Assembly: GCF_053078305.1 (NCBI RefSeq)
Contig: NZ_CP166879.1
DNA length: 64,000 nt
Strand: one strand, 5' to 3'
The notes under the pieces are model-generated. The model worked only from the letters and a program-made list of their open reading frames with translations. It was not told the DNA's origin and did no database searches. Position 1 is the first letter of the stretch; the number at the start of each line of letters is the position of its first letter. A program made the position numbers and the translations under genes. Positions 1-48,918 of the stretch are shown piece by piece.

Positions 1-1909
1 TATGCTGGGATTCACCAGGCCAGGCGCGTATTAATGGCGTCAGTTTGCGGGCGGTGTCATCGTTACCAAGAACGCCTAACGCAGTGAACGCCCAACTCTC
101 TTTCGACGGTGCGCCCGCAGTCAACCAGGCGGTAAACAGATCCCAGGCAAATTCAGCCAGTGAGTCGGCGGTACAGGCATCTTTCACCTGCAATAATCCC
201 GGATACAGGGCCTCTTCCTGAGGGAAGCGGAGCATTTCACCGAGGTGCTGGAGTGCGCTATCTGGCAGTACCTTGCTGCTATTTTTGATTTTCGGGCGAG
301 TCCATAATGGAGGTTGATAAAACAACGGTAAAGGGGGGATTTTCGCCGGGTATTTACCCACAGGACTGTTGTCGTTATTTTTATTTTGAGTTTCCCAGGG
401 CGGCGAGACTAGTACCATTGGTAGAATTTCTGAGTTTGCAAAATCTTCATTGCGACTATTCAGCAATTGCTGACATTGTTGCAATAAATTTGCCGCTTGC
501 GACGATAATCCGATGACTAATTTTTCAACCAATAAAGGATTTGCATTAAGTAATGAAACCAGCAACGTATGTTTGCGTTTATCATCTTTTTTTACCAATG
601 CTTCGGCTAATGCCGCTATCGTGGCAGAAGGAAAATTTTCGGCACTTTTTATTAGTCGTTCATAACAGCGTTTATTAGTATCGGCGGCTTCGATGAGTGC
701 CGTAATGGCCAACGGATGATTAATACATTTCAGTACGTCACCGCAATTATCTTCTTCAGCATAGGGAGCCAGGCGAGCCAGTGCCGCTATACCTTGCTCC
801 CGTAATACCGTAGCTGACCAACTGGCACCATAGGTGTTAAATACATCAATGTATTGATAGTTCTCCAGTATTTCGAGCGTGAATGGATCTGTCGCTACCA
901 GTTTCAACATTTCAAGTTGTGGAACATCTGCGACCTGGTGTAAACGATGTACGATCTCATGGGCCACTTCGGGTATTTCTGGCATTAAAATGGCAATTAA
1001 CGGTTGGCGAAAGAGTGATATATCTGGTAACGCAACGAGTAATTTTGCAATGCAATTTTGCCATACTTCTTCTTCTGCTAGTGATAAATGTTTACGCAGA
1101 CGTAAACTAAATTTGTCGTTATTCCTTCTATAACTGTCCTTGCTGCTATCTGCATAATTAATAAAGAAAGTCAAAAGTTCATCTTTATAGTCAAAATCGA
1201 AATCAATTTGCCACCAGAAGATGACAGTTTCAGTTGCGTATTCGATACCGAAGGTGCTTACAATTTCATCCAGCAACTCGGATGAGGTTTCATCATTCCA
1301 GCCCTGACAAAAACATATTTCCAGAAAAGTAAGTACCGCCATAGTACGCGCGGGTATCTCAGTCTTTTGGGCCTTAATTAAGCTGATTGCCTGGCTAATC
1401 GCATCAGCCCATTCATCAGAGCATGAGCTGTAATCGAAAGTCAGATTTTTATAATAATGATAAGTACGATTTGCCAATCGGGAAATTAAATTTTGTTTCT
1501 CGGGTTTGGTTGGTTTTTTTACTGGCTCTCCCGGCCAAAGGCGGTGGCTGAGGGCATGGCGGGCAATATTCGGGGGAAGAATAATGGGATCGTTGTCTGC
1601 CAGCCAGGGTAAACCATTAGTTGCTGCCTGGCGATTTATTGAGGCTTTTTCCTCTGTGACCAGGACTTTCTTTGCTGAGGCATCATGTGAGTGAGCGTTA
1701 GCGTCTACTTGCTCCACATACCCCTTCTTCACCTTCTCCGCAATCAGCTTCAGTTCCGCTTTTTCTGCCGCCGCAGCATCAGCAAAGCTTTTTACCTGAC
1801 TTTGCCCGTTAGTGCCGACTTTGCCCCAGTTGATATGCAGCTCGTTTCTCTGCTGCTCCACCGCCCAGAATTTATGTGATTTTTCGTCCTGATAAATATA
1901 GGTTTTCAT
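1..1909 (-). CDS. yehI: Large WGR-domain protein, N-terminal part only (gene runs off the window start); paralog of molR
   Basis: ATG at 1909 on the minus strand; translation begins MKTYIYQDEKSHKFWAVEQQRNELHINWGKVGT, a WGR-type motif. Open frame continues to position 1 with no stop. Nucleotide sequence is near-identical to the 5' end of the adjacent molR. Confidence 0.7.
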   Translation of the reverse strand, partial: MKTYIYQDEKSHKFWAVEQQRNELHINWGKVGTNGQSQVKSFADAAAAEKAELKLIAEKVKKGYVEQVDANAHSHDASAKKVLVTEEKASINRQAATNGLPWLADNDPIILPPNIARHALSHRLWPGEPVKKPTKPEKQNLISRLANRTYHYYKNLTFDYSSCSDEWADAISQAISLIKAQKTEIPARTMAVLTFLEICFCQGWNDETSSELLDEIVSTFGIEYATETVIFWWQIDFDFDYKDELLTFFINYADSSKDSYRRNNDKFSLRLRKHLSLAEEEVWQNCIAKLLVALPDISLFRQPLIAILMPEIPEVAHEIVHRLHQVADVPQLEMLKLVATDPFTLEILENYQYIDVFNTYGASWSATVLREQGIAALARLAPYAEEDNCGDVLKCINHPLAITALIEAADTNKRCYERLIKSAENFPSATIAALAEALVKKDDKRKHTLLVSLLNANPLLVEKLVIGLSSQAANLLQQCQQLLNSRNEDFANSEILPMVLVSPPWETQNKNNDNSPVGKYPAKIPPLPLFYQPPLWTRPKIKNSSKVLPDSALQHLGEMLRFPQEEALYPGLLQVKDACTADSLAEFAWDLFTAWLTAGAPSKESWAFTALGVLGNDDTARKLTPLIRAWPGESQH

Positions 1910-16770: not shown

Positions 16771-16903
16771 AACCAAACGACTCGGGGTGCCCTTCTGCGT
16801 GAAGGCTGAGAAATACCCGTATCACCTGATCTGGATAATGCCAGCGTAGGGAAGTCACGGACCACCAGGTCATTGCTTCTTCACGCTATGGCAGGAGCAA
16901 ACT
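16771..16903 (+). ncRNA. TPP (thi-box) riboswitch in the thiM leader
   Basis: The leader aaccaaacgactcggggtgcccttctgcgtgaaggctgagaaatacccgtatcacctgatctggataatgccagcgtagggaa contains the conserved thi-box elements (ctgaga, acctgatctggataatgccagcg) immediately upstream of the thiM ATG. Confidence 0.85.
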
Positions 16904-32228: not shown

Positions 32229-32633
32229 GATCGTATGTGCCTTTATGATTGGTCTGTAGATAGTGTAGAGCAGAAAAGAAAAGGTGGAGTCAGAACAGGA
32301 TGAAAGTCGGAGGATAAATAGTCAGTTCAAGTATGGAGGATTCAGTGGTTACCACCAGGAGCTTGCAATGGGGACAGCGAATACTAACGGCAGCCACCGA
32401 TAAATTTCAAAAAAGAGCATATACCTAATATTCAACTAAACAGTGGCATCTTCAATATAATATATTAAAGCCTCCATGGAGTTACCCGGAAGGGCCTCCA
32501 TGTCCGTAATTCCTACTTATGTAGGAAATGTTGTACAGAACATTTATTATAATCCTATTCAATTATAATAATCATGCCATTATTATATTTAAACACTAGA
32601 GAGTGTCGTTGGTATTTAATGGGGGAAGGTGAG

Positions 32634-32951
32634 GTGAACAAGATAGCTGCTATATCATTAATTAGTGTTTTTCTTATGTCTGGTTGTGCTGTGCATAATG
32701 ATGAGACAAGTATCGGTAAATTTGGCCTTGCATATAAAAGTAATATTCAGCGTAAACTCGATAACCAATACTACACCGAAGCCGAAGCTTCTTTAGCCAG
32801 GGGCAGAATATCTGGTGCAGAAAATATAGTAAAAAATGATGCAGCCCATTTCTGTGTTACTCAGGGCAAAAAAATGCAGATAGTTGACCTGAAGACAGAA
32901 GGTGCAGGATTACATGGCGTCGCTCGTCTGACATTCAAATGTGGAGAGTGA
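32634..32951 (+). CDS. yegR: Small lipoprotein
   Basis: Start taken at the GTG giving MNKIAAISLISVFLMSGCAV (lipobox LMSGC), inside a longer track ORF. Confidence 0.65.
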   Translation: MNKIAAISLISVFLMSGCAVHNDETSIGKFGLAYKSNIQRKLDNQYYTEAEASLARGRISGAENIVKNDAAHFCVTQGKKMQIVDLKTEGAGLHGVARLTFKCGE

Positions 32952-33109: not shown

Positions 33110-33196
33110 AAAAAATAAGCCCGTGTAAGGGAGATTACACAGGCTAAGGAGGTGGTTCCTGGTACAGCTAGCATTTTATGGGTTATGTTTTTCAGC
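33110..33196 (-). ncRNA. cyaR: CyaR (RyeE) Hfq-dependent small RNA
   Basis: The minus strand reads gctgaaaaacataacccataaaatgctagctgtaccaggaaccacctccttagcctgtgtaatctcccttacacgggcttatttttt, which matches the CyaR sequence as I remember it, including its terminator hairpin and U-tail. Confidence 0.85.
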
Positions 33197-33280
33197 GAAA
33201 CGGATGATAACCTTAATAAATGCAGCTGTATGTGATCGGTTTCTAAGAATTTTCCATCCGGGAAAAATAATCGAAATTAA

Positions 33281-34744: not shown

Positions 34745-35041
34745 TTAGCTCCAGTGTAAATGTCTGGTGGCGTCCTGGTTTTGGTTAAGGATACGAATGA
34801 CGATAATTTCCCCTGGTGATTGCAGGAAATAAATTACGTGGCGTTCAAAAGGAAGAACAAAAATACCTTCGCCTAATTCAGGTCTGGGCGTACCTATATT
34901 ATTGTTACTCAGAATCTGGAGAACGTCTGAAAGATGTTCCACATATCTGTCGGCTTGTGGTTCGCCGAAATGGTGATAACTGTAATACCAGATGCCTTCT
35001 AAATCCTCATTGGCTTTTGGCATGAGTTTAATAATACGCAC
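34745..35041 (-). CDS. ParE/RelE-superfamily type II toxin
   Basis: 98 aa; N-terminus MRIIKLMPKANEDLEGIWYY resembles ParE toxins. Its start lies 2 bp after the stop of the upstream antitoxin ORF. Confidence 0.65.
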   Translation of the reverse strand: MRIIKLMPKANEDLEGIWYYSYHHFGEPQADRYVEHLSDVLQILSNNNIGTPRPELGEGIFVLPFERHVIYFLQSPGEIIVIRILNQNQDATRHLHWS

Positions 35042-35042
35042 A

Positions 35043-35294
35043 TTATTTCCTTATCCCTGCTTTCACCTTCCGTAAAAACGCGTCCTTTTCCCACGGCTGA
35101 GCTTCACCACTACTCAACCCTTCTGCAAGCATGTCACGTAATGCTTGCAGGCGAGACTCTGCTTGCTTTTCTCGAAGTAAGCGCAGTGACTCACGGATCA
35201 CTTCGCTTTGGGTGCGATAGTCGCCGGATTCAATTAAGGACTCGATAAATTCACGCAACTCATCGCCGAGATCAACCGTCATCGTTCTGGCCAT
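35043..35294 (-). CDS. ParD-like (ribbon-helix-helix) antitoxin
   Basis: 83 aa, acidic and helical (MARTMTVDLGDELREFIESLIESGDYRTQSEVIRESLRLLREKQ); sits immediately upstream of the toxin on the same strand. Confidence 0.65.
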   Translation of the reverse strand: MARTMTVDLGDELREFIESLIESGDYRTQSEVIRESLRLLREKQAESRLQALRDMLAEGLSSGEAQPWEKDAFLRKVKAGIRK

Positions 35295-45600: not shown

Positions 45601-45796
45601 CCGGGCTCGCACCTGGGTAGAGCGTGACCACCTGAATGGTCGGATAGTCCACTTCCGGCAGCGCCGAAACGGGCAGGGCGCGATAACCGATAATCCCGGC
45701 GAGTAAGATCGCCACCATCAGCAGCGTGGTGGCCACAGGACGCATAATAAACAGGCGCGACGGGCCACCTGTGCTGCTCGGGGGTAACACCTGCAT
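42674..45796 (-). CDS. mdtB: RND multidrug efflux pump subunit
   Basis: 1040 aa. Confidence 0.95.
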
Positions 45797-47043
45797 CAGG
45801 AGCGAGCTCCTTTTTTCGCGTATTCGCGGCTGGTGGCTTTCTCTTCCGGAGTGGTGGCGCTCTGGGCTTCCACCACTTCCACTTTCGCCCCTTCGGTCAG
45901 GCGATCAATGCCGTCTGTCACCACGCGATCGCCCGCAGAAATACCTGCGCGGATCACCACTTTCTGACTGTCCTGAATGCCCGGCGTCACCAGATGTTTG
46001 CTGACCTTGTTTTCGCTATTCAGCACCCAGACAAAATGGCCTTCATTGCCCATTTGCAGGGCGGCTGTTGGGATCACTACGGCGTTTTGTTCGGTGTCGA
46101 CTAACATGCGCGCGTTAACAAACTGATTGGGAAACAGCGCATCATCCTGATTATTAAAGCGTGCTTTCACTTTAATCGTACCGGTAGTGGCATCGATTTG
46201 GTTATCGAGACTTAACAGCGTGCCTTCACTTAATTTCTTTGAATTGGTGCGATCCCAGGCTTCTACCACCAGCGGTTTTCCGGATTTCTGCGCCTGCACG
46301 ACGGTAGCGATATCGCTTTCCGGCAGGGTAAAGAGCAAATCGATAGGATGCGTCTGGGTGATCACCACGATCCCGGTGGTATCACCACTGGAGATTTGGT
46401 TACCAACATCAACCTGCTTGAGACCAACGCGACCATCGACTGGTGCGGTGATGCGGCTCCAGTCGAGTTGCAGCTGCGCGCTGGCGACGCTTGCTTCATC
46501 AGCCTTAATGGTGCCTTCGGTTTCACTGACCAGTGCCTGTTGGGCATCCAGCTCCTGACGGGATACGAGATTGGTTTTTGCCAGTTGCTGATAACGCGCC
46601 AGATCACGGCGGGCGTTAGCAAGCGTGGCTTTATCTTTTGCCAGTTGGCCCTGGGCTTGTGCTAATGCAACTTTGAACTGGCTGGGGTCAATTTCTGCCA
46701 GTAAATCGCCTGCTTTGACCTGCTGGCCTTCCTGGAAATGTAACGCCATCAGTTGACCATCCACGCGGCTGCGCACCGTAACAGTATTAGCGGCGGTAAT
46801 GGTGCCAAGCCCGGTGAGGTAACGCGGAACTGCCTGTTCTACGGCGGTCGCCGCCTGAACCGGGGCTAATGGGCCGGAACGCATACCACGGCGACCACCC
46901 GCAGGTGGGTGCTGCGCTTGTTTCGTCGCACCTGGTGCTGCGCTCTGGGGTTCATTGCGGCCTTGCCAGAACCAGAATGCGGCGATGGCGGCGATAACCA
47001 CCACGATTACGATTACCCAACGGGATTTATAACTGCCTTTCAT
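45796..47043 (-). CDS. mdtA: RND efflux membrane-fusion (periplasmic adaptor) protein
   Basis: Start taken at [25 protein letters not shown], inside a longer track ORF. Confidence 0.92.
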
Positions 47044-47254
47044 CGTTAAGAGTTTCTCTTCCTGAAACGTTTCGCGGAATGATACTAGTGTAGCCAGCCA
47101 ATAAGGGAGAAAAATGGAGGAATTATGAAACACTGTCGGGAATCGTCTGAATGGCGGGCACATTTGCGAGCACGCATCCAGTAATAACACAGGAAACTAT
47201 TTTATCTACGCGTTAGCGATAGACTGCATGCATGGCGAAAGGAGGTAAGCCGAC

Positions 47255-47400
47255 GATTTCAGCGGGATGCTGAAACGGGAAAGCCCCTCCCGAGGAAGGG
47301 GTCTTAAATAAGGAAAGGGTCATGATGAAGATACTCATCATCGTGGTGCTCTTAGTGATTAGCTACCCAGCATACTAAGACTACCAGGGCGGGGGAAACC
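47255..47400 (-). ncRNA. Sib-family antisense RNA, copy 1 (ends approximate)
   Basis: Placed by analogy: Sib RNAs are transcribed opposite to, and fully overlap, the ibs ORF. Ends cannot be fixed from sequence alone. Confidence 0.4.
47322..47378 (+). CDS. Ibs-family type I toxin, copy 1 (18 aa: MMKILIIVVLLVISYPAY)
   Basis: Mini-ORF preceded by aaggaaagggtc; the peptide has the characteristic Ibs hydrophobic sequence. Confidence 0.8.
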   Translation: MMKILIIVVLLVISYPAY

Positions 47401-47582
47401 CCGCTCTACCCTCACTCCTGAAAGTATGCCTTCACGTTCAGAATGTCAATCCGCAGGCTTTGCAGTCTGCGATCCTGCCAGCAAATATTCTTTGCGAGAC
47501 GTTACGCAATAATAACACAGGAAACTATTTTATCTACGCGTTAGCGATAGACTGAATTCAGGGCGAAAGGAGGTAAGCCGAC

Positions 47583-47728
47583 GATTTCAGCGGGACGCTG
47601 AAACGGGAAAGCCCCTCCCGAGGAAGGGGCCTTAAATAAGGAAAGGGTCATGATGAAGTGGATCATCATCGTGGTGCGCTTAGTCATAAGCTTCCCGGCT
47701 TACTAAGACTACCAGGGCGGGGGAAACC
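47583..47728 (-). ncRNA. Sib-family antisense RNA, copy 2 (ends approximate)
   Basis: As copy 1. Confidence 0.4.
47650..47706 (+). CDS. Ibs-family type I toxin, copy 2 (18 aa: MMKWIIIVVRLVISFPAY)
   Basis: Same position within repeat unit 2. Confidence 0.8.
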   Translation: MMKWIIIVVRLVISFPAY

Positions 47729-47919
47729 CCGCTCTACCCTCACTCCTGAAAGTATGCCTTCACGATAAGATTGTCAATCTGCAGGCTTTGCAGTCTGCGA
47801 TCCTGCCAGCAAATATTCTTTGCGAGTCGTTACGCAATAATCATAGAGGGAACTATTTTGTTCACGCGTTAGCGATAGACTGCATTCAGGGCGAAAGGAG
47901 GTAAGCCGACGATTTCAGC

Positions 47920-48070
47920 GGGACGCTGAAACGGGAAACACTCTCCCGGAGAAGAGGGCTTTTAATAAGGAAAGGGTTATGATGAAGCACGTCATCATAC
48001 TGGTGATACTCTTGGTGATTAGCTTCCAGGCTTACTAAGAACACCAGGGGGAGGGGGAAACCTCTCCCTA
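47920..48070 (-). ncRNA. Sib-family antisense RNA, copy 3 (ends approximate)
   Basis: As copy 1. Confidence 0.4.
47989..48048 (+). CDS. Ibs-family type I toxin, copy 3 (19 aa: MMKHVIILVILLVISFQAY)
   Basis: Same position within repeat unit 3. Confidence 0.8.
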
Positions 48071-48258
48071 ACCCTCACTCCTGAAATTATGTCACTCCGC
48101 CCTTAGTGTCAATCGACGGCTCTCCGTTCTTGCGAGGCGAATAGCAAAATTTTCTGCGCCGCCGGGCCTAATTCTGAAAGTTTCTTCGTTTGCTCTTATT
48201 TCATTATTGCAATCGGTATGATACCGGACCTCAATAATTCTCTAAGAAAGGATTTCTT

Positions 48259-48918
48259 ATGAGCGAACAAATCACGTTTGCCACCAGCGATTTTGCCAGT
48301 AACCCGGAACCACGTTGCCCCTGCATTTTGCTGCTGGATGTTTCTGGTTCGATGAACGGTAGACCCATTAATGAACTTAACGCCGGATTGGTTACCTTTC
48401 GCGATGAGCTGCTTGCCGACCCGCTGGCCTTAAAAAGAGTGGAACTTGGTATTGTGACGTTCGGCCCGGTGCATGTGGAACAACCCTTTACCAGCGCCGC
48501 TAATTTTTTCCCGCCCATCCTGTTTGCCCAGGGCGATACACCAATGGGTGCCGCCATTACCAAAGCCCTGGATATGGTAGAGGAGCGGAAACGTGAGTAT
48601 CGTGCAAATGGTATTTCGTATTATCGCCCGTGGATTTTCCTGATCACCGATGGTGCACCAACCGATGAGTGGCAGGCTGCCGCCAACAAAGTGTTTCAGG
48701 GGGAAGAAGATAAGAAGTTTGCCTTCTTTTCCATCGGTGTTCAGGGGGCGGATATTAAGACTCTGGCACAAATCAGCGTTCGTCAGCCTTTGCCACTGCA
48801 GGGATTACAATTCCGTGAACTGTTTAGCTGGTTATCCAGTTCGCTGCGTTCGGTTTCCCGCTCCACGCCGGGAACGGAAGTTGTGCTGGAAGCGCCAAAA
48901 GGCTGGACGTCAGTTTGA
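48259..48918 (+). CDS. yegL: von Willebrand factor A (vWA) domain protein, TerY-like
   Basis: 219 aa; a MIDAS-type motif DxSxS is visible in [12 protein letters not shown]. Confidence 0.85.

Follow-up and report, generated by a model that had tools for sequence, protein, structure and literature searches.

Three head-to-tail units of about 328 bp (47163-48150 of the 64,000-nucleotide stretch of DNA analysed, hereafter the window) fill the spacer between mdtA and yegL, and the array is almost certainly the chromosomal E. coli ibs/sib type I toxin-antitoxin locus in a three-unit allelic form, ordered ibsB-like 1, ibsB-like 2 and ibsA (Table 1). The array was assigned to ibs/sib because its units, on the alignment to K-12 ibsA/ibsB and sibA/sibB that a preliminary description of this DNA had suggested, are homologous end to end to K-12 ibsA/sibA and ibsB/sibB and lie between the same flanking genes, because the Rfam and Pfam matches exceed their cut-offs, and because PGAP calls the same three coding sequences in relatives. 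The sole strain-specific element is one non-synonymous SNP, in unit 2, whose functional effect is uncertain. The identity of the parts, their arrangement, their family membership and their frequency in the population were established directly in this analysis.

The repeats were delimited using Tandem Repeats Finder, which reported a single array (47182-48091, period 328, 2.8 copies, 89% matches, score 1407), and a repeat search, in which units 1 and 2 were 91% identical across 300 nt, a 143-nt upstream part was found as three in-register copies (91% and 83%), and an 85-nt part containing the ORF was likewise found as three in-register copies (88% and 71%). Both bear out the preliminary description, which had given three tandem copies of a ~328-bp unit. 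Against the K-12 ibsB unit, unit 1 reaches 95.7% identity and unit 2 93.6%; against their O157:H7 counterparts (units 1 and 2) the values are 98.2% and 97.6%, and unit 3 is 97.9% identical to the K-12 ibsA unit. The mdtA-yegL spacer is longer than that of K-12 MG1655 (1,215 nt against 887 nt) by exactly one 328-nt unit. The 64-kb window as a whole is colinear with E. coli, without IS insertions, and a Shigella origin was rejected on these grounds.

Table 1. Features of the three-unit array and its boundaries (positions in the window).
Feature	Length	Coordinates	Strand	Basis and remarks
mdtA		45796-47043	-	Left boundary; start codon at 47043; from ORF, translation and relatives' annotation
Repeat unit 1	328 bp	47163-47490		Adjoins mdtA; repeat search and Tandem Repeats Finder
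Sib sRNA 1, SibB-like	~136 nt	47278-47413	-	Ends by homology to K-12 sibB; -35 TTGACA at 47449-47444
ibs ORF 1	18 codons + stop	47322-47378	+	MMKILIIVVLLVISYPAY, RefSeq WP_012767742.1
Repeat unit 2	328 bp	47491-47818		Repeat search and Tandem Repeats Finder
Sib sRNA 2, SibB-like	~136 nt	47606-47741	-	Ends by K-12 Sib homology; -35 TTGACA at 47777-47772
ibs ORF 2	18 codons + stop	47650-47706	+	MMKWIIIVVRLVISFPAY, WP_012767741.1 with L10R
Repeat unit 3, ibsA/sibA unit	~332 bp	47819-48150		Adjoins yegL; repeats and K-12 alignment
SibA sRNA (Sib 3)	~144 nt	47933-48076	-	Ends by K-12 Sib homology; -35 TTGACA at 48112-48107
ibsA ORF (unit 3)	19 codons + stop	47979-48038	+	MMKHVIILVILLVISFQAY
yegL, vWA-domain protein		48259-48918	+	Right boundary

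Each unit carries one ibs ORF. All three translations are exactly those given in the preliminary description, which had called them hydrophobic Ibs-type ORFs of 18-19 codons, and the RBS that it had ascribed to each ORF was found as AAGGAAAGGG, 3 nt before each ATGATG. The peptides, padded with six upstream in-frame residues for use as queries, matched the Pfam family PF13956 (Ibs_toxin) over profile positions 1-19 of 19 in all three cases, with scores of 33.3 (ORF 1), 35.6 (ORF 2) and 49.4 bits (ORF 3) and a cut-off of 27; NCBIfam held no model matching the Ibs peptides. In relatives, O157:H7 among them, PGAP labels each of the three coding sequences either ibsA or 'type I toxin-antitoxin system Ibs family toxin', in agreement with precomputed Pfam hits. 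The peptides of units 1 and 3 conform to the Ibs pattern (MM(K/R) start, uninterrupted hydrophobic core, S-aromatic-x-A-Y tail), and that of unit 2 fits it except for the uninterrupted core, which is broken by Arg10. The 60-nt ORF of unit 1 is identical in 1,119 E. coli records. Unit 3 encodes K-12 IbsA exactly (WP_010723109.1), its ORF having one private synonymous change at 48014, so the Gln earlier described as a replacement of Pro in copy 3 is the ordinary IbsA residue and no substitution.

On the opposite strand, a scan of the whole window matched the Rfam model RF00113 (SIB_RNA, gathering score 56) at 47307-47449 (140.1 bits), 47635-47777 (136.3 bits) and 47964-48112 (146.5 bits), all three on the minus strand, covering model positions 1-147 of 147 and lying far outside chance expectation (E = 1e-28 to 1e-30). 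Sib 1 is identical to K-12 SibB at 128/136 positions, Sib 2 to SibB at 129/136, and Sib 3 to SibA at 141/144, and each span, with its ends placed by homology, contains the whole of its antisense ibs ORF, RBS included. The predicted fold of Sib 1 has a 5'/3' closing stem, internal hairpins and a terminator hairpin. The conserved flanking hairpins remarked on earlier could be matched to these elements, the upstream one (GCCCCTCCCGAGGAAGGGGC) being the Sib terminator on the other strand and the downstream one (GCGGGGGAAACCCCGC) the 5' stem-loop of Sib. An exact TTGACA lies ~36 nt upstream of each Sib. In units 2 and 3 the putative promoter, read from this -35 hexamer down to the start site, matches K-12 sibB (unit 2) or sibA (unit 3) at every base; the -10 element is either CATACT/CATAAT at 15-nt spacing or TACTTT/TAATTT at 17 nt. 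The putative terminator hairpins are G+C-rich, and the U-tract that follows them is interrupted. Neither Sib promoters nor terminators were called in a scan for sigma-70 consensus promoters and terminators, the promoters being missed because their -10 elements are weak or oddly spaced. An Rfam scan of the array at permissive thresholds returned the three SIB_RNA matches only, and the conserved 140 nt upstream gave no match. Outside K-12, annotation pipelines pick up the very short Ibs ORFs but not the Sib RNAs.

The target recognition segments TRD1 and TRD2 were mapped onto the window from published work (Han 2010, PMC2943612). Of the 11 positions at which Sib 1 and Sib 2 differ, the 23-nt TRD1 zone accounts for 6 and the hairpin loop over codons 4-5 for another 4; the TRD2 zone has no difference between them, and there they have 28 uninterrupted identical nucleotides in common. 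Sib paralogues are expected to diverge where discrimination is needed (Han 2010, PMC2943612), and the placing of these differences fits this expectation. Judged from these sequences, units 1 and 2 may cross-repress via TRD2.

To place the array among other strains, the region was searched against 5,426 complete E. coli genomes and was matched in 5,419. Sixty rows were taken at even steps down the match ranking, and annotated Ibs coding sequences under the match were counted: three units were found in 27/60, two in 26/60, four in 4/60, one in 2/60, and the locus was absent from 1/60. Three units is thus the plurality state at the locus, about as common as two, and strains with three include O157:H7, O103:H2, O111:H8 and APEC O78. 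The contrast drawn in the preliminary description, three units where K-12 has two, is correct as to K-12, but three units are no oddity; rather, it is K-12 that is unrepresentative at this locus. Its further statement that copy number varies between strains agrees both with the 1 to 4 units in the sampled rows and with published counts of five Ibs in K-12, six in O157:H7 EDL933 and seven in O157:H7 Sakai (Fozo 2010, PMC2887945). Tandem duplication is likewise recorded as typical of ibs-sib (Fozo 2010, PMC2887945). Because both the variation in Ibs number and the tandem duplication are on record, the three-unit finding is correct but known; the array is a standard, published allelic form of a well-studied locus, annotated in thousands of genomes.

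For analysis of how the units are related, 18 units from seven strains were aligned, and the sites separating unit 1 from unit 2 were scored. Scored against APEC O78 units 1 and 2, the K-12 ibsB unit matches unit 1 at its first 15 sites and unit 2 at the remaining 14, changing over once, ~95 nt upstream of the ATG; without the junction columns beside mdtA the counts are 6 and then 14 (P ~5e-5 for so clean an ordering). The K-12 ibsB unit is therefore a chimera of unit 1 (5') and unit 2 (3'), which indicates, on the alignment, that the K-12 two-unit form arose by unit loss. A unit1/unit3 chimera makes up the locus of the single-unit strain Tig228, and the four-unit strain EP91A has a mosaic extra unit. 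The chimeras in K-12 ibsB and Tig228 and the mosaic unit in EP91A carry the mark of unequal homologous recombination between units, through which copy number at the locus (1 to 4) changes. Within the window, a 5-SNP tract at 47514-47535, where the upstream part of unit 2 is identical to unit 1 and strain A16 differs at all five positions, looks like gene conversion. Beyond E. coli, ibs is found beside mdtA in Citrobacter, Kluyvera, Pseudocitrobacter, Salmonella diarizonae and other Escherichia, mostly in one copy.

Two other accounts of the array were weighed against its assignment as a long-standing three-unit ibs/sib allele. The tandem layout, with exactly one unit more than in K-12, is what a recent duplication specific to the source strain would produce, but such an event is highly improbable: units 1 and 2 differ by ~8-9%, orthologous unit-1 and unit-2 alleles are found in O157:H7, A16 and many other strains, ~45% of sampled genomes have three units, and the recombinant is the K-12 unit and not the reverse. 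The unit-2 allele is also present outside E. coli, in Escherichia whittamii, which carries the Leu form of the unit-2 peptide, and the unit-2 type is for this reason old and no fresh duplicate. The preliminary description was accordingly right that the units are diverged rather than freshly duplicated, as seen in the 91-92% identity of units 1 and 2, the alleles common to many strains and the E. whittamii peptide. That the repeats are non-coding REP/BIME-like intergenic elements in which small ORFs arose by chance would agree with the repeat structure itself and nothing further, and can be given practically no credence, since the Rfam and Pfam matches are well clear of the curated cut-offs and the units align base for base with K-12 loci that have been characterised by experiment.

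As a three-unit ibs/sib locus, the array has the arrangement of a type I system, with perfect complementarity between each Sib and its ibs; transcription, repression (at the level of translation, from the K-12 work) and toxicity are inferred from published studies of K-12 ibsC/sibC and Salmonella ibsA, and on these the following would be expected. The plus strand of each unit would give a short ibs mRNA of ~155-162 nt, starting near 47259, 47587 and 47915 (starts placed by homology to ibsC/ibsD, whose +1 sites are encoded in T7 primers used by Han et al.; the published length of the ibsC mRNA is ~160 nt), and encoding a hydrophobic inner-membrane peptide of 18-19 residues. In the predicted fold of the ibs2 mRNA, the RBS region is paired with the 3' end (z = -3.1). 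The minus strand would give an abundant Sib of 136-144 nt, perfectly complementary to the RBS and the entire ORF, which would make first contact with the mRNA via TRD1, in the ORF, and TRD2, which covers the start region, both of them variable segments, and then block ribosome binding or translation, the duplex being exposed to RNase III; the toxin would therefore normally not be made. If over-produced, the peptide would insert in the inner membrane, with depolarisation and a drop in ATP. Growth arrest with membrane depolarisation on over-production is known for K-12 IbsA, IbsC and IbsE and for Salmonella IbsA, and the reported target of Salmonella IbsA is the Fo a and b subunits of ATP synthase (bioRxiv 10.1101/2025.05.26.656083). 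No convincing ibs promoter was identified in the A/B-type unit sequence, and upstream of the 5' UTR the A/B-type units bear no relation to ibsC/D/E, whose promoters have been mapped.

The strain-specific change lies at base 47678 on the plus strand, where a private T>G converts codon CTC to CGC (Leu10>Arg) on the common allele MMKWIIIVVLLVISFPAY (WP_012767741.1), which is present in O157:H7, strain A16 and others. The charged Arg that had been pointed out in copy 2 is thus real, and amounts to one T>G on a widespread allele. No exact match to the 60-nt ORF of unit 2 was found in the 5,426 complete E. coli genomes, among which 2,054 records matched at 95-99% identity, the best of them differing by a single base; an exact 32-mer centred on the 47678 change was absent from GTDB species representatives and JGI metagenomes. 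From every complete E. coli genome the window as a whole diverges by 1.3-2% (the nearest being 98.2-98.7% identical over long stretches), and a private SNP in a 60-nt ORF is unremarkable because of this divergence. The Arg is residue 10 of 18, midway along the hydrophobic helix, and in the DNA alignment its codon aligns with CTC Leu11 of the 19-residue Ibs peptides. On the antisense RNA, the same base is nt 64 of Sib 2, within the TRD1-homologous zone, where the change costs ~3 kcal/mol in the predicted fold; pairing of Sib 2 with its cognate mRNA stays perfect because the RNA is cis-encoded.

Leu11 is reported to be invariant in K-12 and Salmonella Ibs, and L11A to abolish the activity of Salmonella IbsA (preprint, bioRxiv 10.1101/2025.05.26.656083). 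Since Arg replaces the residue aligned with this required Leu11, the unit 2 toxin may be weakened. A refinement of the main explanation, which it does not replace, is that the assignment holds but that, through L10R, the unit 2 peptide is impaired in membrane insertion or target binding or has lost it, leaving two live toxins and three antitoxin RNAs; we place this slightly below an even chance. It is favoured by the position of the Arg at the centre of the hydrophobic helix, by the loss of the CTC Leu equivalent to the invariant Leu11, by reviews of IbsC mutagenesis in which toxicity is set by the hydrophobic centre of IbsC, by the fact that the Arg allele was seen in no other sequence searched, and by the sporadic occurrence of other core-disrupting variants in single genomes (Arg7 in Citrobacter amalonaticus S646, Pro11 in C. 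braakii). Against it, the peptide still passes the Pfam model at 35.6 bits, Ibs toxicity tolerates many changes, with even a frameshifted ibsC reported as toxic, and alignment in the N-terminal register would set the Arg against Ile10 and not Leu11. That the G at 47678 is instead a sequencing or assembly error, unit 2 really being the common Leu allele, is improbable: a single base unique among all sequences searched, in tandem repeats of 91% identity that are prone to mis-polishing, is what such an error would look like, but private differences run at ~1-2% window-wide, including the ibsA SNP at 48014, so that a real SNP is expected at such a rate, and no unit has G at the homologous position as a source of mis-mapping. 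It is also conceivable, though we consider it unlikely, that Arg10 marks a real, naturally attenuated toxin, with intact Sib 2 retained as a backup repressor of unit 1 via TRD2; if true, unit 2 would show such a tandem module caught in the course of decay into a spare antitoxin. Arg10 is one private SNP in an array that is standard in all else; it provides a natural variant with which to ask whether 18-residue IbsB-type peptides depend on the central Leu for their toxicity.

Among known systems close to the array, K-12 ibsA-sibA/ibsB-sibB (QUAD1a/1b; b4667/b4436 and b4668/b4437) has the same locus, flanking genes and unit architecture but one unit fewer, and its IbsB (MMKLLIIVVLLVISFPAY) exactly matches neither unit 1 nor unit 2. 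The three-unit arrays of O157:H7, A16 and many B1/E-type strains have the same unit order and identical peptides 1 and 3. Over a 1.38-kb region the window is 97-99.3% identical to the O157:H7/A16-type arrays, from which it differs by Arg10 in place of Leu10 in peptide 2, the synonymous ibsA change and the 47514-47535 tract. The K-12 tandem pair ibsD-sibD/ibsE-sibE and ibsC-sibC, the latter being the mechanistic model, belong to the same family and have the same antisense overlap of RBS and ORF. Differences are concentrated in TRD1 both between SibD and SibE (5/15) and between Sib 1 and Sib 2 of the window (6/11), whereas TRD2 has 3 differences in the former pair and none in the latter.

Salmonella Typhimurium IbsA is likewise an Ibs peptide opposed by an antisense SibA; it has 19 residues, of which the third is basic and the eleventh is Leu (bioRxiv 10.1101/2025.05.26.656083); its gene, unlike those of the window, is single-copy and lies at the yqiK-rfaE locus, and it is for the Salmonella peptide that the Fo target is reported. 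The Ldr/Rdl (LDR repeats) and Zor/Orz systems of E. coli are also tandem chromosomal type I modules of strain-dependent copy number, but their peptides and RNAs are unrelated to Ibs and Sib, and Rdl and Orz pair with the 5' UTR, whereas Sib overlaps the whole ORF.

Over its full 64 kb, the window is colinear with the chromosomes of E. coli. Its identity to the closest genome in a set of 5,426 complete ones reaches only 98.2–98.7%, and which strain is closest differs from one segment to another. The window's lineage is therefore unrepresented among these genomes. Within the tandem ibs/sib array, two private single-base changes were located in unit 3, the A-type unit (ibsA/sibA), of which the synonymous one alters the TRD1 zone of SibA (the segment of the antitoxin RNA that pairs inside the ibs ORF), and its base is carried by none of the 4,445 matching records. 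At 47514–47535, five clustered differences from A16, the nearest strain and likewise a carrier of a three-unit array, were observed, and the upstream region of unit 2 has the state of unit 1 there. A16 differs from the unit-1 state at all five positions, and on sequence comparison the cluster resembles a short tract of gene conversion from one unit to another.

Each unit carries a segment of ~143 nt upstream of the ibs RBS, ~96 nt of which lie upstream of the predicted ibs start. Between A-type and B-type (ibsB-like) units, this segment is 83% conserved, compared with 71% for the ORF/Sib part, and it possibly has a role in the ibs promoter or in regulation. No match to it was found in Rfam, and its sequence is unrelated to the upstream regions of ibsC, ibsD and ibsE.

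Features located in the window and in comparison records (positions are those of the window unless a record is named)
Feature	Position	Strand	Remarks
TPP riboswitch	16773–16869	+	Rfam RF00059, 71.2 bits
yegR-like ORF	32574–32951		directly adjoins CyaR sRNA
CyaR sRNA	33113–33198	-	Rfam, 100.7 bits
parE/parD type II toxin–antitoxin pair	34745–35294	-	between yegQ (trhP) and yegP
~143-nt segments upstream of ibs RBS	47163–47305, 47491–47633, 47819–47961		one per unit
Private single-base change, unit 3	47940		in terminator stem of SibA
Private single-base change, unit 3	48014		ibsA codon 12, TTA>TTG, synonymous
Ibs variant MMKYVIRLVILLVISLPAY, Arg7	L038, about 290–350		Citrobacter amalonaticus S646, beside mdtA
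Ibs variant MMKQVIILVIPLVISLPAY, Pro11	L035, about 1305–1363		C. braakii ATCC 51113, beside mdtA

Elsewhere in the window, the parE/parD pair (domain scores of 51 bits for ParE_toxin and 69 bits for ParD_antitoxin) is apparently intact. The ParD gene of A16 is annotated as frameshifted, and the yegQ–yegP spacer of K-12 is just 146 nt. In K-12, cyaR is followed by a remnant of the cryptic prophage PR-X (ogrK, yegZ), which appears to be missing beside cyaR in the window.

Disruptive one-off Ibs variants beside mdtA were also seen in other species, among GTDB species representatives (both are listed in the table). In non-K-12 genomes, the tiny ibs CDSs are annotated by PGAP (RefSeq records L002–L007 and L014), and none of these records has a Sib ncRNA annotation, so that in them the antitoxin genes are unannotated outside K-12. 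When E. coli genomes were searched with the array region, ten matches fell on plasmid-typed records.
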